From positions 69,485-133,484 of the forward strand of contig CAWGYG010000008.1 of NCBI GenBank assembly GCA_963826915.1: 64,000 nucleotides of DNA, read 5' to 3'. Both the position numbers and the translations under genes were made by a program. Under the pieces are notes generated by a model. The model did no database searches and was not told where the DNA came from. It saw only the letters and a list, made by a program, of their open reading frames with translations. Of the stretch, positions 10,388 through 54,808 are shown piece after piece (the first letter of the stretch is position 1; the number at the start of each line of letters is the position of its first letter). The DNA is from an uncultured Acidobacteriaceae bacterium (GTDB lineage: Bacteria; Acidobacteriota; Terriglobia; Terriglobales; Acidobacteriaceae).

Positions 10388-10502
10388 GATTCGTTACTCC
10401 GATGTGGTCTGAAAATAAACTGATTTGCAGTTCCTTCGATTTGGATCTCGTCAATTCCGTTCGCGCGCCTCCTGACGCTGACTATTTCCGCGAAGGGGCG
10501 AG

Positions 10503-13256
10503 TCACTTAATCACGTTGATAGCAGCGACTCCCAAGGCAAAGTTTGAGAATACCGCCGACCAATCTGTCAGGCCGCGCAGTAACGTGGTCCTGTTGATCG
10601 CTTCGGGCACAACAATCGTGTCGCCAGGATAAATCGGCTGGCGATTGAATTTGTCGTCTGTCCAAATGGTGCGCTCGAGGTACTGGCGGCTTATGACGGA
10701 GCCATCGGCACGAATGATGAAAGTCTGGCGACGATCGGCATTTCGATTTGGACCGCCAGCATTGCGCAAGTAGTCTCCAGCATGTTCGTGCGCTACATAG
10801 AGGAATGAGTTGGGATCGTAAACCGCTCCTACTATTCCCACTGTTGATGGTACGGGAGGGACGACAAAGCGATCGCCATCCTCAAGAGGAAGTTCAGGAA
10901 GAGAGTTTACGCCGGAGTGGAATGGGTCAATGTGCAGGACGATGCGGCCCGTGGCGCGAGCCTCGCGGAGCCGATTAACCAACTCCCGTTGACTCGCAAC
11001 AGAGGCGGAAGTGGTAGCCGCCTCCTGAGGGCTGATAACAGAGGTTGATTTGTTGGCTGCCGAGATTTCAATCTGGTACGAGAGGGCGGATATATATTCA
11101 TCAAGTCGCTGCTGCTGTTCCATTCTTGTGCTTTCACGGCTGAACTGCGAACCGTAGAGGTATGCTTGTGTGGTCAATCCGCCGGCACGAATCACAAGTT
11201 GGTGAAGGGTTTCACCAGGGAGCACGCTATATACGCCGGCATGAACGAACTCGCCTTCAAGCCGAACATACTTTGTCTGCTGAGCTCGCGGCACGCGAAT
11301 GTCTGCATCCGAAAAGATGGTGATCACGTCTCCAGGTTCCAGATTCAAGTCCTGGCTTTCATCCTGATCGAGCACAACAGCTCCAAGATTGAATGGGATG
11401 AGCCGAGTTGCGAGTGTCTTTGCATCTACGCGCTCCACGACCGCATAGCTCCAATCGATGTCGGGAGAGGTTCTCACCACTTGTGTTTGCATAGGAAAAT
11501 GCGGCGAGGTGATCAGGCGAGGACCAACACCGAGGGTCGTGGAAGAGGTGCCGGACGCGGGGGCGCGCTTATTGGTTGCCGCTGAATTTGCGTCGCCGCT
11601 CTTATCGGTTGATGCTGCCAGCGATTGAAACTGCATGGAGCCACCGGATTGCGGTTCGGCATCATTGGGGACGCCGGCAGTAAGTTGCGGAAATAGGCCG
11701 CTGTTTAAGGTCTGGACATCCTGAGGCACCGCCTGGCGACTGACGGTTTGGCCCGCCTCAGAAGGAGGAGCCGTTTGCACCAGCGGGGGCAACATCGGCT
11801 GAAAATCCGCTGTCGGCAGACCAAGCTGTTCGCGACGCAACCAATAGTCTGCGGTCAGCAAAGAACTCTTATCCGGAATCAAATCTCGAATGCGCATGCC
11901 CTCATGCCACGCAAATCTCCCTGGGCTGGCGACATTCCCGCGGAGAGTCACGGTTTTGTCGAAGCGTGGGGCTCCGGCTCGAACCCGCACGATATCTGCA
12001 TTGACCAAAGGCGAAGAAAGTGTGGAGGAATTCATAGCTGCGCTTATCACAACGCGCGCTTTAACTCCAGAGGGTTCGGTTTCAGTGCGCTCGATTTCAA
12101 GCGATGAAGTATCTGCAATTGCCGAAACTCCACCTGCGAGTGCCAGTAGGTCAGCTATGCTCTCCCGACCCCGTAACTCGTAGATGGCAGGCAAATGAAC
12201 ACTTCCGACCACTGCAACCTGCGCTCCCACAGGCGCAAAGTAAATCACGTCTCCGGATTCCAACGATGCATCCTTTGTTTTGTCGCCACGGAGAAGGAGA
12301 TCGTACAGGTCGAAATCGGCGACAAGTTTGCCGTCGCGCTTTAGCTCAATACGGCGCAAAGACCCTTGTGGCTCAGGTCCTCCGCAGGCGAACACAGCGT
12401 TTACGAGGGTGCTTAGGGAGCTGATTGTGTAACTGCCGGGGCGTCGCGCCTCGCCGGTCACAAAGACTTGTATTGAGCGCAGCTGGCCGAGATTTACGTT
12501 CAAGTCATAATTGCGATAAACGCGATCGAACCTCGACTTTAGAAACGGTTGCAGTTGTCCAATTTGAAGTCCTGCAACACGTAGCTCGCCAACCTCAGGA
12601 ATGAATACCGAACCCGACCGGTCTACGGTTAGATGGAGGTTCTGACTGATCTGTCCCCAGGTGCGAATCAGCAGCTCATCTCCGGGGCCCAGGACGTAAT
12701 CCGGAGTCACAGGCAAGTGCTGGACCGGGGCAAAAGTATCTGGAACATCGGCAAAGAGCTCTGCGCCGTAAACAGGGACAATTCGCCCAATGGAACCTGC
12801 AACGAGCATCTGGAATTCTGTCAGCGGCTCAGACTGGGTCGTAAGCCGTTGTTGCCGTCGCATTTCGGGTGAACGATTCAGGCCGTCTGCATCGTCGTGA
12901 TATACAAACGACTGCGAATTGGGATTCCCCGCGTTGATGTTCGGATAAGACCATTGCGCACCGCCACCCATGTCTTCCGTTTGACCTGAAGACGGGGGCG
13001 TAGTTGACTGACAACCGGACATATCCGCGCTGGAAAGGGAGCACCCGGATGTTGAAGAGTCCGAGCCCGTTCCGCTTGGATTCAGCGGCGACTGCGTCGA
13101 TTGCGCACGCGCCGCGCTTAAAGAAAGGGCAACTGAAAAAACAATCAACGTTCTCAAAGTCTTGCCAATGCTCTTACTCATGTCTTTGGTCTTCCGTGGT
13201 GAATTTCCTCGACCGCGAAGAAGTTTTCGTAAACAACGCGGCTTCGGTTTGGCCAC
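10503..13256 (-). CDS. Outer-membrane polysaccharide export protein (Wza/OPX family, multiple SLBB repeats)
   Basis: Poly_export-like core (PDYVLGPGDELLIRTWGQISQNLHLTVDRSGSVFIPEVGELRVAGL) plus repeated SLBB-like modules (GDVIYF.P, GDVITIF, GDRFVVPP, GDTIVVPE). The likely true start is ATG 13181 (MSKSIGKTLRTLIVFSVALSLSAARAQ signal peptide, GGAAGA upstream). Confidence 0.85.
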   Translation of the reverse strand: MAKPKPRCLRKLLRGRGNSPRKTKDMSKSIGKTLRTLIVFSVALSLSAARAQSTQSPLNPSGTGSDSSTSGCSLSSADMSGCQSTTPPSSGQTEDMGGGAQWSYPNINAGNPNSQSFVYHDDADGLNRSPEMRRQQRLTTQSEPLTEFQMLVAGSIGRIVPVYGAELFADVPDTFAPVQHLPVTPDYVLGPGDELLIRTWGQISQNLHLTVDRSGSVFIPEVGELRVAGLQIGQLQPFLKSRFDRVYRNYDLNVNLGQLRSIQVFVTGEARRPGSYTISSLSTLVNAVFACGGPEPQGSLRRIELKRDGKLVADFDLYDLLLRGDKTKDASLESGDVIYFAPVGAQVAVVGSVHLPAIYELRGRESIADLLALAGGVSAIADTSSLEIERTETEPSGVKARVVISAAMNSSTLSSPLVNADIVRVRAGAPRFDKTVTLRGNVASPGRFAWHEGMRIRDLIPDKSSLLTADYWLRREQLGLPTADFQPMLPPLVQTAPPSEAGQTVSRQAVPQDVQTLNSGLFPQLTAGVPNDAEPQSGGSMQFQSLAASTDKSGDANSAATNKRAPASGTSSTTLGVGPRLITSPHFPMQTQVVRTSPDIDWSYAVVERVDAKTLATRLIPFNLGAVVLDQDESQDLNLEPGDVITIFSDADIRVPRAQQTKYVRLEGEFVHAGVYSVLPGETLHQLVIRAGGLTTQAYLYGSQFSRESTRMEQQQRLDEYISALSYQIEISAANKSTSVISPQEAATTSASVASQRELVNRLREARATGRIVLHIDPFHSGVNSLPELPLEDGDRFVVPPVPSTVGIVGAVYDPNSFLYVAHEHAGDYLRNAGGPNRNADRRQTFIIRADGSVISRQYLERTIWTDDKFNRQPIYPGDTIVVPEAINRTTLLRGLTDWSAVFSNFALGVAAINVIK

Positions 13257-38027: not shown

Positions 38028-39773
38028 GTGAGTGAGGAAATGGCCGAGGGTCTGAAACTCCAAAACGTATTGCAGTCGTCGTTCGATTCCCAGTCGGCGC
38101 GTGCAAAGTCGAACCGCGCCGCGCTGCTCGAATTGATGACGGCAATGCGCGCCCAGGAAGATGCGATTCACCGCGGTGGCGGAGCAAAAGCCGCTGCGGC
38201 TCAGCACGCCAAGCGCCGACTTACGGTGCGTGAGCGACTTGACCTGCTGCTCGACAAAGACGCCGAGTTTATGGAATTGGGTCTCTGGGCCGCCCACGAA
38301 ATGTACGCCGAATACGGCGGTGCACCGGGTGCAGGCGTGGTGACCGGATTAGGTCGGGTCAGCGGCCATCTCTGCATGATCATCGCCAATGACGCCACCG
38401 TGAAGGCCGGCGCATTCTTCCCGATGACGGCCAAGAAAGTTTTGCGCGCACAGAACATCGCGCTCGAAAACCGCATACCGACGCTTTACCTCGTGGACTC
38501 GGCCGGCGTTTTTCTACCCCTTCAGGAAGATGTTTTCCCCGACACCGACGACTTTGGACGCGTGTTTAGGAACAATGCCGTAATGAGCTCTCTCGGCATT
38601 CCTCAGATCACAGCAATCATGGGCATGTGCGTAGCCGGCGGCGCGTATCTCCCTGTCATGACCGACACCGTACTGATGACAGAAGGCTCGGGCTTGTTCC
38701 TCGCGGGACCGTCCCTGGTGCAAGCCGCCATTGGGCAGAAGACTGATCCCGAGGAACTCGGAGGCGCGGCTATGCATGCCGAAATCTCCGGCACTGTTGA
38801 CTTCAAAGAGCCGGACGATCACCACTGCCTGGCTCGGCTGCGATCCCTGGTCGAGAAGATCGGCCAACGGCATTCCGCAACTTCGACGCCAGAGCCCTTC
38901 AGCCGAATTCCATTCGACCCCATCCGGGATGCACCGAAGTATCCGGCGGAAGATTTGTATGGCCTCCTCAATCCCGCGCCCGGGGCAAGCAATGTCTACG
39001 ACATGCATGAAGTGATTGCCCGCATCGTCGATCGCAGCGAATTCGATGAATACAAGCAGGACTTCGGCCGAACCATTCTTTGTGGATATGCTCGCGTCGG
39101 TGGCCGCGCCGTAGGTATTGTGGCGAATCAGAAGACCAACCAGAGCCAGATTGTCGCGATGGGTCCGTCCGCAGGAGCGAAACGAATCGAAGTCGGCGGC
39201 GTCATCTATACAGAAGGCGCACAAAAGGCCGCACGATTCATTATGGATTGCAATCAGAACCTCGTCCCGCTGCTATTCTTGCACGACGTAAATGGGTTTA
39301 TGGTCGGCAAAGATGCGGAGTGGTCAGGCATTATTCGCGCCGGAGCAAAGATGGTGACGGCTGTCAGCACCAGTGTCGTACCGAAAATCACCGTAATCGT
39401 TGGCGGCAGCTTCGGCGCCGGCCACTACGCGATGTGCGGTAAAGCCTATGATCCGCGTTTTCTTTTCGCGTGGCCGACAGCACGTTATGCAGTTATGAGC
39501 GGCGCTTCTGCGGCAAACACGCTTGCCGAGGTTCGCGCCAAACAAGTAGAGCGAGGCGGCAAAGTTCTATCGGAAGCTGAGAGAACTGCGCTCCACGATG
39601 AGATCAAGTCAACCTATGACGCACAAGCCGACCCGCGCTATGGCGCTGCGCGCCTTTGGATCGACGCCATCATTGATCCAGGTAAAACGCGGGTTGTACT
39701 AATTCAGGCCTTGGAGGCTTGTGCCATGAACCCAGATATTCCTCGCTTCAACCCGGGAGTGCTGCAAACCTGA
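38028..39773 (+). CDS. Acyl-CoA carboxylase carboxyltransferase (beta) subunit, methylcrotonyl-CoA carboxylase-like
   Basis: RLTVRERLDLLLD...VVTGLGRVSG...IANDATVKAGAFFP...KKVLRAQNIALENRIPTLYLVDSAGVFLP...GMCVAGGAYLP. The start could instead be ATG 38040. Confidence 0.85.
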   Translation: MSEEMAEGLKLQNVLQSSFDSQSARAKSNRAALLELMTAMRAQEDAIHRGGGAKAAAAQHAKRRLTVRERLDLLLDKDAEFMELGLWAAHEMYAEYGGAPGAGVVTGLGRVSGHLCMIIANDATVKAGAFFPMTAKKVLRAQNIALENRIPTLYLVDSAGVFLPLQEDVFPDTDDFGRVFRNNAVMSSLGIPQITAIMGMCVAGGAYLPVMTDTVLMTEGSGLFLAGPSLVQAAIGQKTDPEELGGAAMHAEISGTVDFKEPDDHHCLARLRSLVEKIGQRHSATSTPEPFSRIPFDPIRDAPKYPAEDLYGLLNPAPGASNVYDMHEVIARIVDRSEFDEYKQDFGRTILCGYARVGGRAVGIVANQKTNQSQIVAMGPSAGAKRIEVGGVIYTEGAQKAARFIMDCNQNLVPLLFLHDVNGFMVGKDAEWSGIIRAGAKMVTAVSTSVVPKITVIVGGSFGAGHYAMCGKAYDPRFLFAWPTARYAVMSGASAANTLAEVRAKQVERGGKVLSEAERTALHDEIKSTYDAQADPRYGAARLWIDAIIDPGKTRVVLIQALEACAMNPDIPRFNPGVLQT

Positions 39774-39877
39774 CAAGTTTTTCCCGGGCACTTGCTTGTC
39801 ATTCATGCCGGGCGTGGCATCTTATTCAATCAGCAGGAAGCAGAGCGCGTTGTACATAAGGCACGAAGGAGCAATAC

Positions 39878-41068
39878 ATGAGCGTTGCGCTTGAGACGGC
39901 AGAGAGTTTGTATCCATTCGTACTGACCGAGGATCAGGAACATCTGCGCCGGGAGATTCGGGAGTTTGCCGCCCGCGAGATCGCGCCCAACGTGATGGCC
40001 TGGGACGAGGCCAGCGAGTTCCCTGCGGCCGTGGTCAAGAAACTTGGCCAGATGGGCTTGCTGGGCGTCATCGTTCCGCCGGAGTATGGCGGTGCAGGCC
40101 TTGGCTACGTCGACTATGTCCTGGCAATTGAAGAACTCTCCGCTGTCGATGGCTCCATTGGCATCATCGTCGCGGCGCATAATTCCCTGGGCACCAACCA
40201 CATCTTTCTCGCCGGCAATGAGGCACAGAAGCGCAAGTACATCCCACGCCTCGCCAGCGGAGAATGGCTCGCAGCATGGGGCCTGACCGAGCCCGGGGCA
40301 GGCTCTGACGCCAGTAACTCGCGCACTACAGCGGTTCGCAAGGGTGATCGCTACATTTTGAATGGCAATAAGACCTTCATTACGAACGGCCACTATGCCG
40401 ACGTCGCCGTGGTTATCGCCTCAACCGATAAGAGCAAAGGTACACACGGCCTTTCTGCCTTCGTGGTGGAGAAGGGAACCAAGGGATTCCGCCCCGGCAA
40501 AAAGGAAAACAAGCTCGGCCTGCGCGCCAGCGACACCAGCGAGTTGATCTTCGAAGATTGCGAGATTCCTGCCGAGAATCTTCTCGGCGCCGAAGGCGAA
40601 GGATTTATCGATGCCATGCGTGTCCTGGATGGCGGCAGAATCTCTATTGCCGCCCTCGCGCTTGGAATTGGACGCGGCGCACTCGACGCAGCATTGAAGT
40701 ACGTAAAAGAACGGCGTCAGTTCGGTAAGGCGATCGCCGAGTTCCAGGGAATTCAATGGAAGCTCGCGGACATGGCCACAGAGTTGGACGCAGCGCGCCT
40801 GCTCACCCAGCGCGCAGCAGTCTTGAAGGATGCCGGCCGAAAGGTGACGCGCGAATCGTCCATGGCGAAGCTGTTTTCAAGCGAAGTGGCCGTGCGCATC
40901 TGCGACGATGCCGTACAGCTGTTTGGCGGCTACGGCTTCATCAAGGACTATCCGGCCGAGAAGTACTATCGCGATGTGAAGCTGTGCACCATCGGCGAAG
41001 GCACAAGCGAAATACAGCGGATGGTCATCGCCCGGGAAATCCTGAAGGTTCACCCGTCACGCGGCTGA
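39878..41068 (+). CDS. Acyl-CoA dehydrogenase (isovaleryl-/short-branched-chain-type by context)
   Basis: [14 protein letters not shown], ...[29 protein letters not shown]. Confidence 0.9.
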
Positions 41069-41095
41069 GTGGGCTCGCCGATAATGGAGGGAAGC

Positions 41096-41968
41096 ATGGA
41101 CAATCTCGTCAAGATTATCGAGTGCCCGCGCGACGCCTGGCAGGGACTTCCGGTGCCAATTGCGCCGGAAGCAAAAGCCGATTACCTCCGCAAACTCATC
41201 GATGCCGGGTTTGCGCATATCGACGCAGTCAGTTTCGTCTCACCCGCGGCAGTTCCCCAAATGGCAGACTCCGAACAGGTGCTCGTACATCTCAACCCGC
41301 CGGAGGATGTCGAGATTATTGGCATCGTCGTGAATGAGAAAGGAGCGCACCGCGCCGCCCGCACTGGTGCGGTGCAAACCCTCGGCTTTCCGTACTCCAT
41401 CTCACCTCAGTTTCTTATGCGCAATCAGCATCAAACACCGGAAGAGTCGCTCGATGCGCTGGAGACAATACAGACGCTGGCCATTGATGAGGGCATCGAC
41501 GTAGTCGCATATGTCTCCATGGCTTTTGGCAATCCTTACGGAGATGAGTGGAGCATCGGCGAACTGCTCGATGCGTGCGATCTTCTCGCCGAATCCGGAG
41601 TCAGACAGATTTCGCTTGCCGATACAGTAGGTCTCGCGCAACCCGACCAAATTGGCGAAACAATTACGGCCGTGCTCGCCCAGCACGACGAAATCGAGTT
41701 TGGAGTTCATCTCCACGCAAGGCCCGCTGAGGCGGCAATTCGGATTCGGGCCGCATTTGAAGCAGGCTGTCGACGATTTGATTCTGCAATTGGTGGCCTT
41801 GGTGGATGCCCATTCGCCCAAGACATACTGGTAGGCAATATTGCCACCGAGACACTTTTAGCTGAGTTGACGGCCCGGGGCGCGAAGCTGCCCTCTCTGG
41901 GCTCGCTGGATGATTTGGTACAGGCGAATGCGCAGATTTCCAGTCGTTTTGGAACGCTTGTGCAGTAA
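41096..41968 (+). CDS. Hydroxymethylglutaryl-CoA lyase
   Basis: VKIIECPRDAWQG, the DTVG motif (LADTVGLAQP), HLHARP and GGLGGCPFA. Start at ATG 41096 behind GGAGGGA. Confidence 0.85.
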   Translation: MDNLVKIIECPRDAWQGLPVPIAPEAKADYLRKLIDAGFAHIDAVSFVSPAAVPQMADSEQVLVHLNPPEDVEIIGIVVNEKGAHRAARTGAVQTLGFPYSISPQFLMRNQHQTPEESLDALETIQTLAIDEGIDVVAYVSMAFGNPYGDEWSIGELLDACDLLAESGVRQISLADTVGLAQPDQIGETITAVLAQHDEIEFGVHLHARPAEAAIRIRAAFEAGCRRFDSAIGGLGGCPFAQDILVGNIATETLLAELTARGAKLPSLGSLDDLVQANAQISSRFGTLVQ

Positions 41969-42018
41969 CGAGAACCTTCCGGCTACACCTGCAGCGATTC
42001 AACACCTCGGAGGACGGA

Positions 42019-42798
42019 TTGAGTTACAAAACGATTCTGGTTGTCGACAATCATTCGACCCGTACAATCACTCTGCATCGGCCAGAACGCCGCAACGCGA
42101 TGACGACAGAGATGCAGATAGAGCTGATTGCCGCCCTCGAGGAAGCCTCCACCAGTGAGTGCCGTGTGCTTGTGCTGGCCGGCGCCGGCGATGCCTTCTG
42201 CGCGGGCCTCGATCTATCTGAGTTGCAAGGGATGCGCGACAAGACGCCAGCCGACCATCGAATTGCTGCGGAACGGATTGCCAGATTGTTCCTGGCCCTC
42301 TATGAGCTGCCCATCCCCACAATCGCGGCGGTGCATGGTCCGGCCATCGCGGGTGGATCGGGGTTAGCTACTATCTGTGACGTCACGATCGCAACCCCGG
42401 CGGCCCGGTTTGGCTTCACCGAGACACGCATCGGCTTTGTCCCTGCTATTCTCTCGGCATTCTTGGCATTGCAGATCGGGGACAAGCGAAGCCGGGATCT
42501 CTTGCTCACTGGTCGCATCTTCGACGCCGAAGAAGCTTTCCGACTGGGTTTGGTCAACGAAGTTGTCGCGCCGGAAGATCTCGCGCCACGCATTCAGGCT
42601 CTTGCCGCGGCTCTATCTGCAAACAGCCCGCAATCCCTACGCGCTACCAAACGGTTGCTCGCTGCACAGAATAGGCCATGGCTCGACGCCGCAATTCTCG
42701 TCGCGATGGATGCAAACGCGAAGGCTCGTGAAACCGGCGATTTTCACGAGGGCCTTACGGCATTTCTCGAGAAGAGAAAGCCCGTCTGGAAAAAGTGA
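42019..42798 (+). CDS. Enoyl-CoA hydratase/isomerase family (methylglutaconyl-CoA hydratase by context)
   Basis: RPERRNAM, GAGDAFCAGLDL, AAVHGPAIAGG and the GLVNEVV crotonase fold. TTG start behind GGAGGA. Confidence 0.8.
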   Translation: MSYKTILVVDNHSTRTITLHRPERRNAMTTEMQIELIAALEEASTSECRVLVLAGAGDAFCAGLDLSELQGMRDKTPADHRIAAERIARLFLALYELPIPTIAAVHGPAIAGGSGLATICDVTIATPAARFGFTETRIGFVPAILSAFLALQIGDKRSRDLLLTGRIFDAEEAFRLGLVNEVVAPEDLAPRIQALAAALSANSPQSLRATKRLLAAQNRPWLDAAILVAMDANAKARETGDFHEGLTAFLEKRKPVWKK

Positions 42799-42803
42799 GC
42801 CTC

Positions 42804-43448
42804 CTAGACTGCGGCCATTCGAAATCGTAGCGGCGCATCTGTTTTCTGCAGTACTTGTTCGCGCGTAACCCCATCGGCAAGCTCGAAAATCTCAAACCCA
42901 GACTCCATCACGTCGAGTACACAAAGATCCGTAATCACGCGATGCACAACCCCGCTGCCCGTGAGCGGCAACGTGCAGGTCCGCAATAGCTTGGCGCTGC
43001 CATCCGGTGTCGTGTGTTCCATCAACACGAGCACCCGCTTAACTCCCGAAACAAGGTCCATCGCGCCGCCCATACCCTTTACTCTTTTGCCAGGAATCAT
43101 CCAATTAGCGAGGTCTCCGCGTTCCGAGACTTGCATCGCGCCAAGGATTGCAAGGTCGATGTGCCCGCCACGAATCATTGCAAACGAGTCCGCACTCGAA
43201 AAGGTTGATGCCCCGGGAACAAACGTTACTGTTTCCTTGCCCGCATTGATCAAGTCCGGGTCAATCTCCGCTTCGCGCGGAAAAGGCCCCATTCCCAGAA
43301 GCCCATTCTCCGATTGCAGCGTTACGGTCATTCCATTGGAAATGTGGTTCGCAACAAGTGTCGGAATCCCAATCCCCAAATTGACGTAGAAGCCGTCATG
43401 CAGTTCCCGTGCAGCGCGGGCGGCCATCTGTTGTCGAGTCCATGCCAC
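42804..43448 (-). CDS. scoB: 3-oxoacid CoA-transferase subunit B
   Basis: After trimming to GTG 43448 (GAGAGGGA SD, 4 nt after the scoA stop) the protein starts [35 protein letters not shown] and contains the SENG catalytic-Glu motif ([12 protein letters not shown]). Confidence 0.9.
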
Positions 43449-43452
43449 TGAT

Positions 43453-44151
43453 TTATCCCTCTCGCGTCGTTCTTTTTTCGATCCGCTTCTCAGGATCGGG
43501 AACATGAACCAGCCGCTGGACGTAGATTCCCGGCGTATGAATCTCATCAGGATCGAGTTCGCCTGGCTCCACAATGATCTCCGCCTCGGCCACTGTGATC
43601 TTGCCGCACGCGGCTGCATTGGGATTGAAATTGCGTGCGGTCCGGCGATAGATCAGATTCCCATCGAGATCAGCCTTCCAGGCTTTCACAAGCGCCACAT
43701 CGGCACGAATGCCGCGCTCTAAAATATAGGGTGCCCCGTCGAATTCCATCTGTTCCTTGCCCTCCGCGATCAAGGTGCCAACACCCGTTCGCGTGTAGAA
43801 ACCAGGTATTCCGGCGCCACCCGCTCTCATGCGTTCGGCCAGCGTACCTTGGGGGCTGAATTCCACTTCCAGTTCACCAGCCAGATATTGGCGTTCAAAC
43901 TCGACGTTTTCGCCGACGTAGCTTGAGATCATCTTCTTGATCTGGCGAGTCTCGAGCAGCACGCCCAAACCCCACCCGTCCACACCCGCATTGTTGCTGG
44001 CAACCGTCAGATTGCGTGCCCCCGTGTCGCGCAGCGCAAGGATGAGAGCCTCGGGAATGCCGCAGAGACCAAAACCGCCGATCGCCAGCAGCATTCCATC
44101 CTGAACGATCCCTTCCAGTGCCGCATGCGGATTAGGCCAAAGCTTTTTCAT
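43453..44151 (-). CDS. scoA: 3-oxoacid CoA-transferase subunit A
   Basis: From ATG 44151: [34 protein letters not shown]...SNNAG... Confidence 0.9.
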
Positions 44152-44525
44152 AGCGGAAAAACCCCAAAGGGTAAAGTGCAATCCAGCCGCGCTCTCTTCA
44201 CTCCACCCGCCATTCTTACACCATCAAACCCACCCTAGCCAACTTTCGAATGAGTATCGGCGTCTCGTCGGCATCATATTTCATTCTTCCAGTTCAGATG
44301 CGGGCCTGGCGGCTTGAATCAGATGATGGGTCTGATCCTGATGCATGCTTTTACGACTCCAAATTAATCCTCTCCAGCGTTCTCGCCGATAAAGCAGATG
44401 CCCACTGACGACCGGAAATCCGGTCGCGGAAGGGAGACTGTTCGCACATCCAAACAGACGTGAGAACAAATGCAAAATAACCTGATAAATCGGGAGCAGA
44501 AGACACGATCATCCGCAGAAGCCCG

Positions 44526-46280
44526 TTGGTGTGCCAAGGGGAATTTGTGTTGAAAACCAATGTGCCATCGGCGAATTCTGCACTCCAGACAGCGGCGGGA
44601 AACATCCGTGCAGCGCTGCTTCTCGCCGAGCACGAGATCGACGCCGTAGCTACGGGTTTTGAAGAGCTTGGTCGCACCACAAGCTCCATTCTCGACGATG
44701 CAGCCATCATCGTAGCTTGCGTCGAAGACCATCGCTTCCTCTCGATCCTTGACACTTCTAAGAGCGTCGTCGACGCCACGGGACAATTCGTCCGCCTGAG
44801 GCTGCAATCGGTCGCTGAAGTTCTGGCGGTTCTGAACACTGAGGCCACACTCCTCGACCAACTCTCGTTCCAAACGCGCCAGCAAAAGTCTATTGCCCGC
44901 AAAATCCAGGCGCTCAGTGTCCTTACCAAGATCGAAGTCGCCCGTCTGGGAGGACTGGGGACGGGTTTCGACCACCTGGCGTGCGAACTGGCCAGCTTTG
45001 CGGAATCGATTGCGACCGATACAAGGATCCTGACCAGTCAGACGGATGACAGCAAGACCGTCATTGCAATCACGAAGCACATGCTCGGTGACGAATTCCG
45101 TCGTATTCAACGGGAATCTGCGCGCTTGGATGTTGAGCTGGAAAACGCATTTTCACAAATGAAACAAGGCATTGCCAAACTGTCAGCGATTCCCGACGCT
45201 TTCAGAGACTGCGTGGCGCAAATGGCCGCACAGATTGACGGAGTGATTGCCGCAGTGCAAACCCACGACATTACTCGCCAGCAAATGGAACATGTACAGC
45301 AATCTCTTCAAATGATTGCATCGGCCACCATGGGTGCCCATGATGCTGCACATACAGCAAATGGCAATCTGGCGGATCTGCTTGCAGGTTTGGTTATCCA
45401 GGTATATCAGCTAAAGAACAGTCGGGAAACTATTCATCTCTGGATTGACCAAATCGATCTCTGCCTTGAAGGCATCCTTCGTATCAGTTCCTCAGACGTC
45501 TCCAGGATTGGACCTGATGTTCTTGTTCAAGAGCGGAACCTCTCGTCGCAGTTGGGCGGCATCGCGAAGCTGGAACAAGATTGCCAGGCGGACAATCAAA
45601 GACTCCACGGTGCCCTGGCGCGCCTTGCCGAACTGGTCCAGCTTGTCAGCGAGCACGAGGCTCTCTCGAAGACAGCAAGAGAGCGACTTGAGCTCCTCAG
45701 CTTCAACTCCATCATCGAAGCGAATCGTCTCGGCACCCGTGCCGATGCAATCCTCGAAATATCGCAAAGTATTAAGAGTATTTCGGCTGAATGGACCCAA
45801 TTGACTGCGCTGGCCGGATTGGCAATTGAAAAGATACTCAGCCATGCCATGCAGGCTCAGGAACATGCTAGTACATCTTCTCTTGAAAATCGCGCGCGCA
45901 TGCACGACGCTCACCAGCGCGCTATGCGCAGTCTCGATCACCTTCATACAGTTGCGCTCGATGCTGCTCAAAAAGCGATTCAAATCGAAAATGCAACCTC
46001 GAAAATGCGCAGTTCTGGGATGAAGACGTCCGCTGCGACCAGCCGTCTCGCAGGCTGCCTGGCATCCTTGGAAATGGTGCAACGCGACGTGGAACAGGCT
46101 ACTCAAGAGTTGAAAGGCCATGCTTTGCTCGAACCGGGAGACCCCAAGCAAGTTGAGAGGCTGTTTGCCGCATCCTATACAACCGAAATCGAACGCCAGG
46201 TGCTTCATTCTGCACTTTATGGGACACCCGTCGAAACGAAAAACATCCAGGGAATAGGAAACGATGTTGAGCTCTTCTAA
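44526..46280 (+). CDS. Soluble MCP-related protein with two degenerate signalling-tip motifs (first gene of che operon)
   Basis: 584-aa ORF. The start is more likely GTG 44547 behind AAGGGGA. See findings for the motif alignment with the canonical MCP tip. No TM segment. Confidence 0.6.
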   Translation: MVCQGEFVLKTNVPSANSALQTAAGNIRAALLLAEHEIDAVATGFEELGRTTSSILDDAAIIVACVEDHRFLSILDTSKSVVDATGQFVRLRLQSVAEVLAVLNTEATLLDQLSFQTRQQKSIARKIQALSVLTKIEVARLGGLGTGFDHLACELASFAESIATDTRILTSQTDDSKTVIAITKHMLGDEFRRIQRESARLDVELENAFSQMKQGIAKLSAIPDAFRDCVAQMAAQIDGVIAAVQTHDITRQQMEHVQQSLQMIASATMGAHDAAHTANGNLADLLAGLVIQVYQLKNSRETIHLWIDQIDLCLEGILRISSSDVSRIGPDVLVQERNLSSQLGGIAKLEQDCQADNQRLHGALARLAELVQLVSEHEALSKTARERLELLSFNSIIEANRLGTRADAILEISQSIKSISAEWTQLTALAGLAIEKILSHAMQAQEHASTSSLENRARMHDAHQRAMRSLDHLHTVALDAAQKAIQIENATSKMRSSGMKTSAATSRLAGCLASLEMVQRDVEQATQELKGHALLEPGDPKQVERLFAASYTTEIERQVLHSALYGTPVETKNIQGIGNDVELF

Positions 46281-46339
46281 TATTCCTAGCGTTGTTCGAG
46301 CATGTGCAGTCGTACGAATCAGAAAGATGGGAGCCGGAG

Positions 46340-46702
46340 ATGAAGAAGGTTCTTGCAGTGGATGATTCATCAAGCGTGAGACAGATGGTATGTTTCACAT
46401 TGCGCAAAGCCGGCTATGAAACAGCTGAGGCGGTCGATGGCAGAGATGGCCTGGCCAAGTCTTCCGCTCAAAAGTTCGACCTGGTTATCACCGACCTCAA
46501 CATGCCAAACATAGACGGCATCCAGATGATTTCGGCGATTCGCAAGCTGCCCGGTTATACATTTACACCCATCCTCATGCTGACCACCGAGTCGCAGGCG
46601 GAGAAAAAACACGCTGGCCGTAAGGCCGGAGCAACTGGATGGATCGTGAAGCCCTTCAACCCCGATCAATTGGTCGCTGCGTTGTCGAAGCTAATCAGAT
46701 AA
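46340..46702 (+). CDS. cheY: CheY-like single-domain response regulator
   Basis: MKKVLAVDDSSSVRQM...DLVITDLNMPNIDG...LTTE...KPF. GGAG SD before ATG 46340. Confidence 0.9.
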   Translation: MKKVLAVDDSSSVRQMVCFTLRKAGYETAEAVDGRDGLAKSSAQKFDLVITDLNMPNIDGIQMISAIRKLPGYTFTPILMLTTESQAEKKHAGRKAGATGWIVKPFNPDQLVAALSKLIR

Positions 46703-46917
46703 CGGATATGGCCCTTCTCCGAATCGCAATCCGGGCACCTCATAACGGGACTCCGACTGTCGAACTCGCTCTTTTTGGGAATCCCCGCGAAGGAATAAAG
46801 CCTTCTGCTCCCAAATTGACCAAAACCCTCCGATATAGATGATTCAGCGACAGGTACAGAACGGCCAGGTGTGGCCGGCGTCTTGTGTCATTGGTATCCG
46901 CCTGCGGGGAGTCTCAC

Positions 46918-47259
46918 GTGCCAATCCGCTTAGATCAAAGTCAAACGCCAGAAACCATCTTCTTAGAGGGTGCAATCGACATTTCATCCGCGGCGGAGTT
47001 GAAGCGGGCCCTCATTGAGGCTGTTGATTCAAGAATCGGATTTCTAGTCTCTCTCGCCCGCACGACCGCGCTGGATGTAACGACCTTGCAATTGCTCCAC
47101 GCTGCCGAACGTGAAGCTGAAACTTCAGGAATTGGGTTCCGTATCGTTGGACCCCTATCTGGCGAGATCTTGGCTTCGTTTCGCGATGTCGACTTGCAGC
47201 CTCCTCTTATATGCGAAGAGACAAACCAGGAAAGCGGGGAAGTCTCGTGTCGACCGTAG
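46918..47259 (+). CDS. STAS-domain protein (anti-sigma-factor-antagonist fold)
   Basis: IFLEGAIDISSAAELKRALIEAV...VSLARTTALDVTTLQLLHAAEREAETSGIGFRIVGP. GTG 46918 behind GGGGAG. The track ORF begins at 46885. Confidence 0.7.
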   Translation: MPIRLDQSQTPETIFLEGAIDISSAAELKRALIEAVDSRIGFLVSLARTTALDVTTLQLLHAAEREAETSGIGFRIVGPLSGEILASFRDVDLQPPLICEETNQESGEVSCRP

Positions 47260-49304
47260 GAAACGTTGACAGCTTCAAGCAGGGCTTCCTCGACGAGGCG
47301 AGAGAGATCGTTATCGAGCTCGAGACTGCTCTGCTTGAACTCGGCGAAGCCCGCTCCAACACGCAGCTCACTGGGCAGGTTTTTCGCGGTCTCCATACCC
47401 TTAAAGGGTCCGGCTCCATGTTTGGATTCGACAAGCTTGCCGCTTTTCTGCACGACCTCGAGACCGCCTTCGACGCAGTGCGCAACGGCCGGCTTGCAGT
47501 GACCCCAGAACTAATTGACTTGACCCTTGCCGCTCTTGACCAGGTCAAGGCAATGCTTGAAGAGGGGAGTTGCACAATTACCACAGTTCCCTCGGCATGC
47601 GCGGAGATCCTGGCCGGAGTACGTAACCTCATCGGATTCTCAGAGAGCCGTACAAAAGAAGAAGAGACAAATCAGCCGAGTTCCCCCGTAAAAACCGCGC
47701 TGCAGGAATGGCATATTCATTTCGCTCCAGGCCCGGATTTCATGCGAAGCGGCGCCGACCCACTGCTGCTATTCCGCGAACTCAAACAGCTTGGTGCCCT
47801 TTCTGTCCAGGCAAGCATGGCATTCCTCCCGCCTCTGCGTGAGCTTGACCCAGAGCGGTGTTACGTCAGTTGGGATGCCACACTCACGGCCGCGACCGAT
47901 CGCGATGGAATAAAGGATGTCTTCATCTTCGTTGAAGATCAATGCGAACTGACCATTGAACCTGTTGACATCGTTCCCTCGCCCGCAGCAGCAAGCCCAG
48001 CCTTGCCTTGCGCCGAGAAACGCTCAGCGTCTACTGGCCGGCGAGAATACGAAAAACAGGATAACGCGGCCTCGAACATACGCGTACCCGCTGCCAAGCT
48101 GGATCAGTATGTCGATCTCGTGGGCGAGCTCGTCACGGTGCAGGCACGTCTCAGCGAGATTGCAGTGCGCCGCGACGATCCCGACGTGCTGGCGGTGTCA
48201 GAGGAAGTGGAACGCCTGACAGCAGCACTCCGTGACAACTCCATGAACATCCGAATGCTCCCGATTCGTGGAACCTTCGAACGATTTCGGAGGTTGGTCC
48301 ACGACCTCGCGCGCGACCTTGACAAGGACGTGGAGTTAACCATCGAAGGCGCAGATACCGAACTCGACAAAACCGTAATCGACCAGTTGAGCGACCCATT
48401 GATGCATTTGATTCGCAACAGCATGGATCACGGCATTGAGGCTCACGAAGTTCGCGCCGCTCGTGGCAAGCGGAGTACTGCAAATATTCATCTTTCCGCA
48501 AGGCATTCGGGTGCCAGCGTACTCATTTCCGTCTCCGATGACGGGGCCGGCATCGACAAAGACGCCGTACACAGTCGCGCCGTCAAAAGAGGTTTGGCGT
48601 CTCCCGATACGCCTCTTAGCGAAGCGGATATCTTTGCATTCATCTTCCAGCCCGGTTTTTCTACGGCTAAGCAAATCACCGACGTTTCAGGTCGCGGCGT
48701 AGGTTTGGATGTAGTTCGACAGCGCGTCGATGCGTTGCGAGGAGCGATCGAGATTACGAGTAAGGCAGGCGAGGGAACCGTCATCACGCTGCGGCTGCCT
48801 CTGACTCTCGCCATCATCGATGGTCTTCTTGTGAGCGTGGGATTGTCCTATTTCGTTCTGCCCCTAGCCAACGCGCTGGAGTGCATCGAACTGACTCGTG
48901 ATGACGTTCGACGAACCAACGGGAAGCATATGGCCAACGTCCGGGGTGAAATCGTTCCATACATCTGCCTGCGCGAATACTTTGACATTCGTGCCCCGCG
49001 CCCGGATCGCGAACAAATCATGGTGGTCGAAACCGAGGAGGGGCGCTATGGCTTGGTCATCGATGAAGTGCTGGGCAATTGCCAGACGGTAATCAAGAAT
49101 CTGGGCCGCTTTTATCGCCATGTTCAAGTGGTTTCCGGCGCCACCATTCTTGGGAATGGAACGGTGGCGCTCATACTCGATGCGCATCGCCTTGTGCTCG
49201 AAGCAATACGCGCATCATCACCTGCCAGCCATTCCGGGCACGTCGCCGCTTCCGCAAAGGACAGCGCGCGATCGAGAGAAGGTGCATCACTGAAAGCCCC
49301 TTAA
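47247..49304 (+). CDS. cheA: Chemotaxis histidine kinase CheA (Hpt-P3-HATPase-CheW-like, no receiver)
   Basis: Hpt FRGLHTLKGSGSMFG, N-box HLIRNSMDHGIE, G1 DDGAGID, F-box FQPGFST, G2 GRGVGLDVV, and a P5 CheW-like C-terminus. GTG 47247 behind GGGGAAG. Confidence 0.9.
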   Translation: MSTVGNVDSFKQGFLDEAREIVIELETALLELGEARSNTQLTGQVFRGLHTLKGSGSMFGFDKLAAFLHDLETAFDAVRNGRLAVTPELIDLTLAALDQVKAMLEEGSCTITTVPSACAEILAGVRNLIGFSESRTKEEETNQPSSPVKTALQEWHIHFAPGPDFMRSGADPLLLFRELKQLGALSVQASMAFLPPLRELDPERCYVSWDATLTAATDRDGIKDVFIFVEDQCELTIEPVDIVPSPAAASPALPCAEKRSASTGRREYEKQDNAASNIRVPAAKLDQYVDLVGELVTVQARLSEIAVRRDDPDVLAVSEEVERLTAALRDNSMNIRMLPIRGTFERFRRLVHDLARDLDKDVELTIEGADTELDKTVIDQLSDPLMHLIRNSMDHGIEAHEVRAARGKRSTANIHLSARHSGASVLISVSDDGAGIDKDAVHSRAVKRGLASPDTPLSEADIFAFIFQPGFSTAKQITDVSGRGVGLDVVRQRVDALRGAIEITSKAGEGTVITLRLPLTLAIIDGLLVSVGLSYFVLPLANALECIELTRDDVRRTNGKHMANVRGEIVPYICLREYFDIRAPRPDREQIMVVETEEGRYGLVIDEVLGNCQTVIKNLGRFYRHVQVVSGATILGNGTVALILDAHRLVLEAIRASSPASHSGHVAASAKDSARSREGASLKAP

Positions 49305-51696: not shown

Positions 51697-51795
51697 CCGG
51701 TCGGTCACGGGCCGCATTCATGCGGCCCGTGGCCTGGGCGCCTTTCTTTAATGAGAAAAGCGCCGCTGTCTTCAGAATGCGAAAAGGAGCAGATT

Positions 51796-52308
51796 ATGAG
51801 CGTTACTGAAATCACGGAGACACGGCAGTATCTGACCTTCAAGCTCGGCAACGAGATCTTTGCGACCGATGTTGCAAAGGTAAGGGAAGTGCTCGACCTG
51901 ACCACCATCACCGCGATCCCGCGAACACCCGACTTTATGAGCGGAGTCATCAATCTTCGCGGCAGCGTGGTGCCTGTCGTCGACCTGCGACTGTGCTTTG
52001 AAATGTCAAAGACTGAAAAGACGCGCAATACCTGCATTGTGGTTGTTGAGGTGTTGCTTGAAAACGAATCCACCGTTATCGGCGCGCTTGCCGATTCGGT
52101 GGAGGAGGTGATCGACCTGGAGCCGGACCAGATCCAGCCAGCGCCGCGCATCGGAACCCAGATTCGCACCGACTTCATCAAGGGGATGGGAAAGCGCGAC
52201 ACGCAGTTCATCATGATCCTCGACATAGATCGCGTTTTTTCTGCAGGCGAGCTCACCGCGATTCATGGCCAGGAAACCAGCAAGCCGCCCGCCGATGCGG
52301 CAGCCTGA
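51796..52308 (+). CDS. cheW: CheW coupling protein
   Basis: QYLTFKLGNEIFATDVAKVREVLDL...IPRTPDFMSGVINLRGSVVPVVDLR. AAGGAG SD before ATG 51796. Confidence 0.9.
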   Translation: MSVTEITETRQYLTFKLGNEIFATDVAKVREVLDLTTITAIPRTPDFMSGVINLRGSVVPVVDLRLCFEMSKTEKTRNTCIVVVEVLLENESTVIGALADSVEEVIDLEPDQIQPAPRIGTQIRTDFIKGMGKRDTQFIMILDIDRVFSAGELTAIHGQETSKPPADAAA

Positions 52309-52348
52309 AGGAGGGAGAACGGGGCGCGAACTGCGCTCCGTTCGCACC

Positions 52349-53186
52349 ATGAGCGCCCACGATGAGAGCATCTCCACACGAGACTACACCCGCCTTTGCG
52401 GCCTGATCTATTCCAGCGCCGGAATTCACCTGGGCGACGGGAAAAAGACGATGCTCGAGTCAAGGGTCAGACGCCGGCTGAAAGAACTGAACATCGGCTC
52501 GTTTGCCCAGTATTGCGATTACCTGTTCGGACCAAAATGCGCCAAAGAGGAGATTGTCCACTTCCTCGACGTGGTGACAACCAACAAGACAGATTTCTTT
52601 CGCGAGCCGGGCCACTTCACGTTCCTAACCGAAAAAGCACTCCCGGATTTCTCGGCACGCGCTGACTTTGGAAAGCAATTTCTGATCTGGAGCGCAGGCT
52701 GCTCCAGCGGCGAAGAACCGTACACCATGGCGATGGTGCTCAGCGAGTACGCCCGGACTCATCCCGGATTTCATTTCAGAATTCTGGCAACCGACATCTC
52801 CACCACTGTCCTAAAACATGCCGAACAAGGCGTTTACGCCAACGATTTGGTCGCTCCTGTGCCTGCTGCTCTCCGACGGAAATACTTTATGCGCAGTCGC
52901 GATCCGAATTTCTCAAAGATGCGCATCGTCCCCGAATTGAGAAAACTCGTCGAGTTTCGCCGACTCAATTTCATGGACACAGACTACGGAGTCCATGAGG
53001 AAGCCGACGCGATCTTTTGCAGGAACGTGATTATCTATTTCGATCGCCCTACCCAGGAGCGAATCCTACGTAACCTCTCTTCACACCTCGCACCAGGCGG
53101 ATTCATGTTCGTTGGCCACGCTGAGACCTTGCACGATATGAATCTTCCACTTATTCCGGTTGCTCCAGCGCTCTATAGGAAGCTCG

Positions 53187-53200
<14 letters not shown>
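52349..53200 (+). CDS. cheR: Chemotaxis protein methyltransferase CheR
   Basis: N-terminal helical domain (DYTRLCGLIYSSAGIHL...KKTMLESRVRRRL), TNKTDFFRE, the SAM-binding IWSAGCSSGEEPYTMAM, and FCRNVIIYFD. Confidence 0.9.

Positions 53201-54808
<1,608 letters not shown>

Follow-up and report, generated by a model that had tools for sequence, protein, structure and literature searches.

We describe a soluble, receptor-like protein of 584 residues that heads a chemotaxis (che) operon in a 64,000-nucleotide stretch of DNA from an uncultured Acidobacteriaceae bacterium (assembly GCA_963826915.1, contig CAWGYG010000008.1, positions 69,485 to 133,484; hereafter the window). The window protein is the product of the open reading frame (ORF) at 44526-46280 on the forward strand; its residues are numbered from the TTG and nucleotide positions are those of the window. 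A first-pass annotation, made from the sequence letters, had placed this ORF at the head of the operon, and it is indeed present there and real. The best explanation for the protein is that it is a cytoplasmic, sensor-less, non-methylated member of the McpA-like receptors, composed of two tandem, degenerate modules of the methyl-accepting chemotaxis protein (MCP) type. As to its function, we tentatively propose, from sequence features, that it may be a receptor-shaped, array-docked phosphatase of the CheZ type that acts on phosphorylated CheY (CheY~P). The protein had been put forward as an undescribed component, which is too strong a claim: the xVELF tail, the gene position and the DxxxQ helix 112 residues past the tip are common to McpA-like receptors of F7 systems. 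What is new is the absence of a transmembrane (TM) segment, the second hairpin module, the architecture of tip plus DxxxQ helix at 112 residues, and the CheZ-like reading of this helix and of the tail.

Both halves of the window protein are homologous to the hairpin of MCP signalling domains. A full-length profile from 51 sequences matched Tm14 (3g67) in the PDB with E=1.5e-10 over residues 33-231, the match being centred on the tip and covering both arms, and a profile of residues 276-584 from 74 sequences returned MCP signalling domains as all of its best eight matches (2ch7, E=5.4e-7; 3g67, E=1.3e-6), with a gapless alignment across the tip core LQLLtFNsiIEAshLG. When compared with operon-type MCPs by hhalign, the N half gave P=7e-8 and the C half P=1.2e-3, against P=0.1-0.2 for reversed-sequence controls. 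Judged by these profiles, both segments are genuine, diverged MCP signalling modules, and the earlier proposal of two diverged tips in one chain holds. The IExxRxG cores of the two tips are separated by 261 residues, exactly as first noted. At the level of the single sequence the picture is less even. Tip 1, IARKIQALSVLTKIEVARLGGLGTGFDHLACELASFAESI, which begins at residue 123 and not at 122 as annotated, shares 16/40 residues without gaps with the tip of the MCP encoded in the same operon (residues 544-583), while the best gapless 40-mer over 300 shuffles of the window protein gives 8-13 identities. Tip 2, ARERLELLSFNSIIEANRLGTRADAILEISQSIKSISAEW, shares 6/40 in the register first proposed and 8/40 in the HMMER register, one residue later (A384 opposite I544). 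Only tip 1 is thus above chance here and tip 2 is within it, so that the gapless match claimed for the second segment stands for the profile, with a register shift of one residue, and is at chance level for the single sequence. In the family alignment F393, N394 and E398 of tip 2 are invariant and G403 is nearly so. Nowhere in the protein is conservation higher than in the two tips (0.84-0.92). A direct comparison of the N-half and C-half profiles was not significant (P about 0.1), so that an internal duplication is indicated only through the shared similarity to MCPs; such a duplication, or a scaffold role, is possible.

Against the Pfam family MCPsignal (PF00015) the window protein itself has no match at E<=1 and stays below the gathering cut-off of 34.6 bits in this comparison, which the first-pass annotation had suggested. 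Among the relatives, weak PF00015 matches were found in 45/51 homologues (best E=5e-9) and on module 2 alone in 19 of the 74 members, and in a distant sister group module 2 exceeds the cut-off with 35-75 bits. The protein is soluble and free of HAMP, as had been stated. Its maximum 19-residue Kyte-Doolittle mean is 1.18, with no stretch of TM grade, and no HAMP, sensor domain or other Pfam family matched it. The methylation consensus [ASTG][ASTG]xx[EQ][EQ]xx[ASTG][ASTG] occurs at 0 sites in the window protein versus 3 in the operon MCP, and a site is present in only 31/122 family members. Given this lack of methylation consensus, TM segment and sensor domain, the best reading of the sequence is that the protein is not an ordinary receptor. 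The module arms of about 127-131 residues (roughly 18 heptads) are similar in length to those of the operon MCP (about 117-126 residues), so the tips of both proteins could sit level in one array. Compared with the soluble Thermotoga maritima receptors Tm14 (3G67) and Tm1143 (2CH7), to which both halves are homologous with tip-centred matches, the window protein differs by its missing methylation consensus, its degenerate tips, its two modules per chain and the absence of a PF00015 match.

Two further motifs had been singled out in the first-pass annotation, QTHDITRQQMEHV and the region of YTTEIERQVLH, and both belong to the most conserved parts of the family. The former and the C-terminal region are in fact the most informative features of the protein, because they resemble a CheZ helix and a docking peptide, respectively. 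The helix QTHDITRQQMEHV ranks second to tip 1 in conservation; Q245, D248, R251, Q252 and H256 are invariant, D and Q remain so in >100 full-length members, and D-[IVL]-[TS]-R-Q-Q is found in 95/109 of these. The corresponding E. coli CheZ segment reads AQDFQDLTGQ with the catalytic residues D143 and Q147, and CheZ proteins in general are described as conserving the composite signature AXXFQ-DXXXQ (PMC7750401). In the sister group this signature is complete (ALQFQDITRQQ). One full-length sister protein matches Pfam CheZ with E=8e-4. When 100-residue segments around the motif were searched, Pfam CheZ was the top family (5/32 members, E 3.3e-5 to 0.028); two coiled-coil families equalled this member count, with best E values of 0.007 or worse. 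All CheZ matches agree in register: position p of the segment falls on position p+66 of the profile, which places D and Q on profile positions 129 and 133. Since residues 17-214 of E. coli CheZ map to profile positions 3-203, D143 and Q147 lie at about the same positions 129 and 133. Additionally, hhalign of the motif segment with an alignment of enteric CheZ sequences put D248/Q252 on D143/Q147 with P=0.008, versus 0.23 for the reversed control; the search for CheZ homologues had returned only enteric CheZ, and this CheZ profile is therefore of low diversity.

The likeness to CheZ (PF04344) extends beyond the motif. In both cases a long helix within an all-helical bundle bears the AXXFQ-DXXXQ-type signature, the chain closes, after a flexible linker, with a short acidic-hydrophobic peptide whose last residue is Phe, the gene stands next to cheY, and an association with receptor arrays is plausible. 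The differences are likewise clear: CheZ has about 214 residues, whereas the window protein has about 580 and is built on MCP-type modules, its family scores below the Pfam CheZ gathering cut-off, and the likeness is one of sequence. In the CheZ structure (1KMI), the catalytic residues lie about 40 residues from the hairpin turn, versus about 104 in the window protein. Our literature search, of incomplete coverage, found no statement that links McpA-like receptors to CheZ motifs; prior notice elsewhere is possible.

The second informative feature, the tail, connects the protein with the McpA-like receptors. Ortega et al. 2020 (PMC7184735) described ancestral F7 clusters as holding STAS proteins, an Aer2-like 36H receptor and a McpA-like receptor of uncategorised class, with mcpA beside cheY in stage-2 and after cheB in stage-1 clusters. 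The C-terminus of the McpA-like proteins is highly conserved, with valine at position 2 of the pentapeptide, and its role was left unexplained (PMC7184735); the tails given in Suppl. Table 12 of that study are EVELF (VCA1088), DIELF, DLELF and TVELF. The valine-containing tail is reported to bind no P. aeruginosa CheR (García-Fontana 2014, as cited by Ortega 2020), which leaves another partner, for example CheY. The operon in the window fits this description. The F7 core set cheY-cheA-cheW-aer2-like-cheR-cheD-cheB plus STAS is present, and the identity to a Vibrio F7 cluster is 58% for CheY, 43% for CheB and 35% for CheA; by gene content and identity, the operon is F7-like.

For comparison, Vibrio F7 clusters were located via CheD on two secondary replicons. 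In each, the product of the gene after cheB has a TM stretch near its N-terminus, a single canonical tip, the helix GIRALQFTDIIVQQ and an EVEFF or EVELF ending; the second of these proteins carries the same helix motif as that of V. aquimaris. Counted from the IExxRxG core of the tip, the Asp of DxxxQ follows after exactly 112 residues in the window protein, in four relatives, one of them acidobacterial and three from the sister group (P0006, P0177, P0169 and P0204), and in the V. aquimaris McpA-like protein. We point out that the AxxFxDxxxQ helix at tip plus 112 is defined here as a McpA-like feature, from these two Vibrio members. A first V. aquimaris candidate (H25/L088) turned out to be an unrelated MCP and was discarded. 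The window protein shares with the McpA-like receptors (P. aeruginosa PA0180/McpA/CttP; V. cholerae VCA1088/Mlp44) a gene location within an F7-type cluster, either beside cheY or following cheB, a signalling domain outside the standard heptad classes, and the xVELF tail with Val where CheR-tethering pentapeptides carry Trp; with the two Vibrio proteins it shares the DxxxQ helix at the same distance from the tip (in Vibrio ALQFxDxxxQQ, e.g. ALQFTDIIVQQ). It differs from the gamma-proteobacterial members, which have a TM region, by the lack of one, and further by the second degenerate hairpin module of about 260 residues plus the YTTExER motif, inserted between the DxxxQ helix and the tail. Its tip 1 is degenerate, in contrast to the canonical tips of the Vibrio proteins, and its branch lies in the Acidobacteriota, with sister groups beside STAS-CheY-CheA elsewhere.

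Over the widest phylogenetic range, what is retained is tip module 1, the DxxxQ helix at +112, the xVELF tail and a location near cheY, STAS and cheA, but not the double tip; this pattern suggests that the main task of the protein concerns CheY and not sensing. We propose a mechanism in three steps. First, the tip modules, similar in length to the Aer2-like poly-HAMP MCP, would dock the window protein into the cytoplasmic array of receptor, CheA and CheW. Second, the flexible, invariant GNDVELF tail would capture the co-encoded CheY~P, comparable to the C-terminal peptide of CheZ. Third, D248 and Q252 on the AxxxxDITRQQ helix would speed the dephosphorylation of CheY~P in the manner of D143 and Q147 of CheZ. 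The three steps do not carry the same weight: array docking by the tip modules seems rather probable to us, binding of CheY by the tail is suggested by analogy to CheZ, and catalysis by D248/Q252 is a tentative assignment that we would put somewhat below an even chance.

Several observations weigh against this proposal. The acidobacterial branch, to which the window protein belongs, reads AVQTH in place of AXXFQ, so that F and Q are replaced and only Ala is kept. The best Pfam CheZ score is 24.3 bits (E 3.3e-5) for a cut-off of 30.7, only members of the sister group score at all, and the window protein itself has no Pfam CheZ score. The motif-segment profile run against the PDB gave coiled-coil noise and no CheZ, and the full-length profile compared with E. 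coli CheZ was not significant. The sequence similarity to CheZ is therefore local and sub-threshold. The tie to the McpA-like family is loose as well: hhalign of the family with the Vibrio McpA-like protein gave E=3.9e-4, no better than with other MCPs. Because of this value, strict membership is doubtful under the operational definition of Ortega 2020 (clustering with PA0180 at E<1e-30), and the window protein is perhaps best regarded as a distant, TM-less, two-module branch related to the McpA-like family. P. aeruginosa McpA/CttP has moreover been reported as a trichloroethylene chemoreceptor that joins F6 arrays (PMC7534058). Finally, tip 2 has no Gly-rich turn, and neither hairpin turn appears in the structure predictions. 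AlphaFold2 on the full length (51-sequence alignment; mean predicted local distance difference test score, pLDDT, 85.5; predicted template modelling score 0.62) placed helices at 13-66, 69-273, 278-319 and 328-532, with no break at either tip and the sole turn at 274-277; the C half alone (25 sequences) came out as one helix through tip 2. The first-pass annotation had foreseen either two hairpins or a single canonical one, and the long helices through both tips with a single turn at 274-277 are neither. The geometry of hairpins and array docking is, in short, not supported by structure prediction.

We nevertheless do not accept the topology without turns, since the alignments are shallow and the heptad phase is continuous across true MCP tips: the hydrophobic 3.5-residue periodicity keeps its phase across the tip in bona fide MCPs and in both modules of the window protein, which explains how AlphaFold2 can run a helix through a real U-turn. 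This continuity may account for the unbroken helices that AlphaFold2 places at receptor tips when the alignments are shallow. For the same reason a discontinuity of heptad phase does not discriminate as a U-turn test and was dropped. Foldseek of the full model against the PDB gave no match at E<=1e-3; MCPs appeared with probability 1.0, a TM-score of about 0.3 and a huge root-mean-square deviation, and the method is uninformative for coiled coils of this length. As to covariation, raw mutual information with average product correction peaks at the diagonals expected for a four-helix bundle, a signal confounded by entropy; mean-field direct coupling analysis was dominated by gap columns and set aside. 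After entropy correction, the mutual information peaks at i+j about 285, 545 and 805 and at j-i about 261, the top windows among about 165. These diagonals match the pairs of hairpin 1, of hairpin 2, and the antiparallel and parallel pairs between the halves, the top single pairs being phylogenetic hubs. Among the top covarying pairs, the enrichment is modest, about 2-fold for hairpin-type pairs and about 1.4-fold for inter-half pairs. Covariation cannot separate a side-by-side bundle from a domain-swapped antiparallel dimer, and the arithmetic fits three topologies: two hairpins side by side, two hairpins end to end, or one long domain-swapped hairpin. We adopt two hairpins as the working model because both arms are homologous to a solved hairpin and tip 1 carries an invariant G-x-x-G-x-G-F; the turn at tip 2, with its one Gly, is less certain.

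Regarding the conserved prolines of module 1, P192 (nearly invariant) and P223 (invariant) lie in the middle of the ascending arm in the acidobacterial branch and are not conserved in the sister group. The AlphaFold2 confidence dips at residues 221-250 (pLDDT 73-79), near P223, and the two prolines may kink the arm, or give it a hinge, shortly ahead of the DxxxQ helix. At the C-terminus, residues 576-584 have pLDDT <50.

Among the alternatives, a DosM-like scaffold survives best, although we consider it clearly less probable than the phosphatase. Here the two opposed hairpins would insert into facing CheA/CheW baseplates and so staple a sandwich-type cytoplasmic array of the poly-HAMP MCP, with no catalysis involved. 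A precedent is DosM (VC1403), a receptor of the V. cholerae F9 system whose two signalling domains reach across two baseplates (PMC7534058, PMC9321776). It also corrects the first-pass statement that characterised chemoreceptors have one tip per chain; 98% of DosM homologues consist of two signalling domains only. The window protein is similarly made of two tandem MCP modules in one soluble chain inside a che cluster, has no sensor domain, and is plausibly a structural array component. It lacks methylation sites, and since the operon MCP has no TM segment either, the system is cytoplasmic. With arms of about 127-131 residues, the rod would be about 38 nm long, near the 35 nm baseplate spacing of F9 arrays (Ortega 2020, PMC7184735), and one homologue (locus L035) is part of an F9-like cluster in which a triple-CheW protein is accompanied by a single-domain MCP only. 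Against this, the sequence shows no specific similarity to a DosM-type protein. That of Methylosinus, encoded beside a triple CheW, has two canonical MCPsignal domains (219 bits) 300 residues apart; BLASTP with the window protein gave E about 7, and hhalign aligned only the tips (N half, P=4e-5 and 9e-5; C half, P=3e-3 and 6e-3), values that ordinary MCPs equal or surpass. The window protein, with its sub-threshold modules 261 residues apart in an F7-like cluster, departs from this pattern of canonical Pfam domains, spacing of about 300 residues and triple CheW, and its DITRQQ helix and xVELF tail are both absent from the Methylosinus sequence. Moreover, 69/80 loci of relatives are F7-like, with single CheW and CheD, and not F9, and the linker between the modules is variable, indel-prone and contains Pro or Gly, unlike a continuous central helix. 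A scaffold also leaves the invariant DITRQQ helix, the xVELF tail and the pairing with cheY unexplained. Indeed, the single-module Vibrio McpA-like relatives retain the DxxxQ helix and the tail motifs, which makes these motifs, and not the double tip, the conserved core of the family.

We regard it as unlikely that the window protein is a genuine cytoplasmic chemoreceptor. In such a receptor, a ligand, a metal or a redox signal would be bound by the conserved polar cluster at the end far from the tips (F45, Q245, D248, R251, Q252, H256, Q295, W306 and C313), with the tips in control of CheA. The invariant His, Cys, Trp, Asp and Arg are equidistant (about 91-111 residues) from their own tips and could hence converge at one level of the bundle; the report on trichloroethylene taxis by P. 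aeruginosa McpA/CttP would agree with such a function, and some sources label homologues as methyl-accepting chemotaxis proteins. Methylation sites are however missing despite the co-encoded CheR, CheB and CheD, no sensor domain is recognisable, near-universal tip positions are lost (Asn in tip 1, Phe and two Gly in tip 2), and the polar cluster coincides with the CheZ-like motif.

Slightly less likely again is a non-catalytic adaptor or decoy, whose tail and conserved helix would bind CheY, or else CheB, CheD, STAS or CheA, and thereby sequester the partner or hold it in the array. Tethers typically take the form of a conserved tail after a disordered linker; NWETF, which serves CheR/CheB, and the C-terminus of CheZ, which serves CheY, are examples. 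The STAS protein is always nearby. The F7 CheD of V. aquimaris (L089 11875-12531) ends in …HRFHDDDVELFG, that is, in DVELF plus one residue (…DDDVELFG); because it carries the same peptide, it hints that xVELF is a docking peptide for a partner shared within F7 systems. The acidobacterial CheD proteins, on the other hand, have no DVELF tail, and the strict invariance of D and Q at the CheZ spacing together with the flanking AxxF(Q) exceeds what a binding helix needs. Improbable, in our view, is that the tips are vestigial and lie face to face in mid-helix of one long antiparallel coiled coil, out of contact with CheA and CheW: neither AlphaFold2 run breaks the helix at residues 143-147 or 403-406, tip 2 contains a single Gly and the covariation at i+j about 545 is as strong as that for two hairpins, yet the alignments of 51 and 25 sequences are shallow, bona fide MCPs also keep their heptad phase across the tip, tip 1 retains its invariant G-x-x-G-x-G-F with homology to both arms of a solved hairpin, hairpin-type pairs are enriched about 2-fold among the top covarying ones, and the high conservation of the tips argues for a retained interaction surface.

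The phosphatase proposal has consequences for a larger group of proteins. Homologues of the window protein occur in at least 330 species-level genomes, and the locus counts given here refer to the best 80 of these relatives. These 80 loci are all from Acidobacteriota, mostly metagenome-assembled genomes of Acidobacteriaceae and Terracidiphilus. An exhaustive HMMER search of 1.84 billion clusters found 182 clusters (50% identity) at E<=1e-30, and a second homologue search seeded with an alignment gave nothing new. CheY is encoded directly 3' on the same strand in 74/80 loci, and in 3 more the contig ends first. With X for the window protein, the pair X-CheY heads the cluster in 32 of the 80 (X-CheY-STAS-CheA-MCP-CheW-CheR-CheD-CheB) and trails it in 37 (STAS-CheA-...-CheB-X-CheY). 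The survey of homologues for the STAS-cheA arrangement, suggested in the first-pass annotation, bore out that STAS is kept next to CheA across relatives. The distant, full-length sister group (576-654 residues; 135-170 bits over the whole profile) has the same architecture, and its genes adjoin STAS-CheY-CheA and PAS-containing Aer2-like MCPs. An alphaproteobacterial relative on Shinella oryzae pZ25 (L087 7728-9500) is divergent from STAS-CheY-CheA-CheW-MCP. The YTTE-x-ER motif has its counterparts in RYTMExER of the sister group and YTMVSER of Shinella.

McpA-like receptors are a conserved and unexplained part of the ancestral F7 system, which is the source of the E. coli chemotaxis machine. 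A CheZ-type helix at a fixed distance from the tip together with a docking-like tail, found from Acidobacteria to Vibrio, offers a hypothesis for this family that can be tested by mutation. The window protein would at the same time be a second example, after DosM, of a chain with two tips. One may speculate that the whole McpA-like superfamily (PA0180/VCA1088, the acidobacterial branch and the sister groups) consists of receptor-embedded CheZ-type phosphatases that switch off the F7 CheY at the array, a generalisation from sequence that we would sooner doubt than assert. Free-standing CheZ may descend from such a receptor-derived helical hairpin, which, if true, would be an evolutionary link between receptors and CheZ. 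In clusters with CheD but without CheC, the window protein could be a receptor-mimicking phosphatase partner of CheD. Even if the hypothesis is wrong, a large family is defined, the 182 clusters mentioned above, which Pfam does not model and which databases name inconsistently.

The coordinates of the features discussed are collected in the table. The true start of the window protein is probably the GTG at 44547, giving about 577 residues, because the family alignments begin at about its residue 8-9 and the GTG is preceded by GGGGA. On the 5' side, about 345 nt of non-coding DNA separate the ORF from divergent CoA-transferase genes. According to Pfam, the operon runs X-CheY-STAS-CheA-MCP-CheW-CheR-CheD-CheB, and genes for an L,D-transpeptidase and an ABC-F protein close the cluster. 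Pfam annotation of the window gave no recognisable CheZ, CheC or CheX among the cluster genes; the proposed phosphatase would be the only recognisable one there.

Table. Features of the window protein and of its operon (positions in the window).
Feature	Position	Strand	Remarks
Receptor-like protein ORF	44526..46280	+	584 codons from TTG; stop 46278-46280
Module 1, residues ~13-273	44562..45344	+	diverged MCP signalling domain; ~130-residue arms flanking tip 1
Tip 1, residues 123-162	44892..45011	+	G-x-x-G-x-G-F turn signature; E137, A139, G145, F148 invariant
CheZ-like helix, A243-V-Q-T-H-D248-I-T-R-Q252-Q-M-E-H256-V	45252..45296	+	AXXFQ-DXXXQ-like; 112 residues past the IEVARLG core of tip 1
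Inter-module linker, residues 274-277	45345..45356	+	least conserved part (minimum 0.28), indel-prone; low pLDDT
Module 2, residues ~278-532	45357..46121	+	second, more degenerate MCP signalling domain
Tip 2, residues 384-423	45675..45794	+	LLxxNxxIEAxRxG kept; without Gly-rich turn and Phe
YTTE-x-ER motif, residues 551-561	46176..46208	+	Y551, E556, R557 invariant
C-terminal tail G-N-D-V-E-L-F	46257..46277	+	invariant; after disordered linker; equals the xVELF motif of McpA-like receptors
CheY	46292..46702	+	starts 12 nt 3' of the window protein ORF; Pfam and NCBIfam
STAS-domain protein (anti-sigma-factor antagonist type)	46885..47259	+	Pfam; kept next to CheA across relatives
CheA	47211..49304	+	Pfam and NCBIfam
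Soluble poly-HAMP MCP, 745 residues	49459..51696	+	four HAMP_2 repeats plus MCPsignal; closest to Aer2 models; three methylation consensus sites
CheW	51751..52308	+	Pfam, single-domain
CheR	52265..53200	+	Pfam
CheD	53160..53747	+	Pfam
CheB	53744..54808	+	Pfam

Between cheY and the STAS gene lies a gap of 183 nt (46703-46884) with a sigma-70-like match at 46816-46843 on the forward strand. The X-CheY pair may be a transcription unit apart from STAS-CheA-…-CheB, consistent with the finding that in other genomes X-CheY shifts as one block from one end of the cluster to the other. The longest STAS and CheA ORFs share 49 nt in different frames, and the start of one of them probably lies further downstream than the longest-ORF call. 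The four tandem HAMP_2 repeats of the operon MCP, of about 60-90 residues, contain near-identical sequence blocks and come without PAS; its C-terminus is DGEFERY and not the xWxxF CheR-tethering pentapeptide typical of Aer2-like receptors.

Locus L035 (1-11900), mentioned above, is an acidobacterial F9-like cluster with a triple-CheW protein of 520 residues, a soluble single-domain MCP, a HEAT-repeat protein, a frameshift-split CheB, CheR, CheY, STAS and a CheA of 973 residues with three Hpt stretches. Its homologue of the window protein is split into two ORFs (9717-10019 and 10016-11449) and followed by another CheY. Here the family accompanies the type of cluster that normally holds DosM. 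Among the loci checked with Pfam, L035 is the only one with a triple CheW; the flanks of L027 are also not F7-like, and no triple CheW was seen in them.

The Shinella relative carries the motifs GDITRQRIEH, YTMVSER and …EDALF. In sister records it is labelled "type VII secretion target"; this is probably a misannotation, apparently caused by a marginal EspC Pfam match on its coiled coil. Names given to family members by JGI differ widely and include chromosome segregation ATPase, SbcCD, FliS, ElaB and YhgE. Finally, the window holds at 38028-44181 (forward strand) a set of genes that looks like leucine/isovalerate catabolism, with a carboxyltransferase, an acyl-CoA dehydrogenase, an HMGL-like lyase and an enoyl-CoA hydratase; within the same interval, the reverse strand encodes two CoA-transferase subunits, and none of these genes is related to the che cluster.

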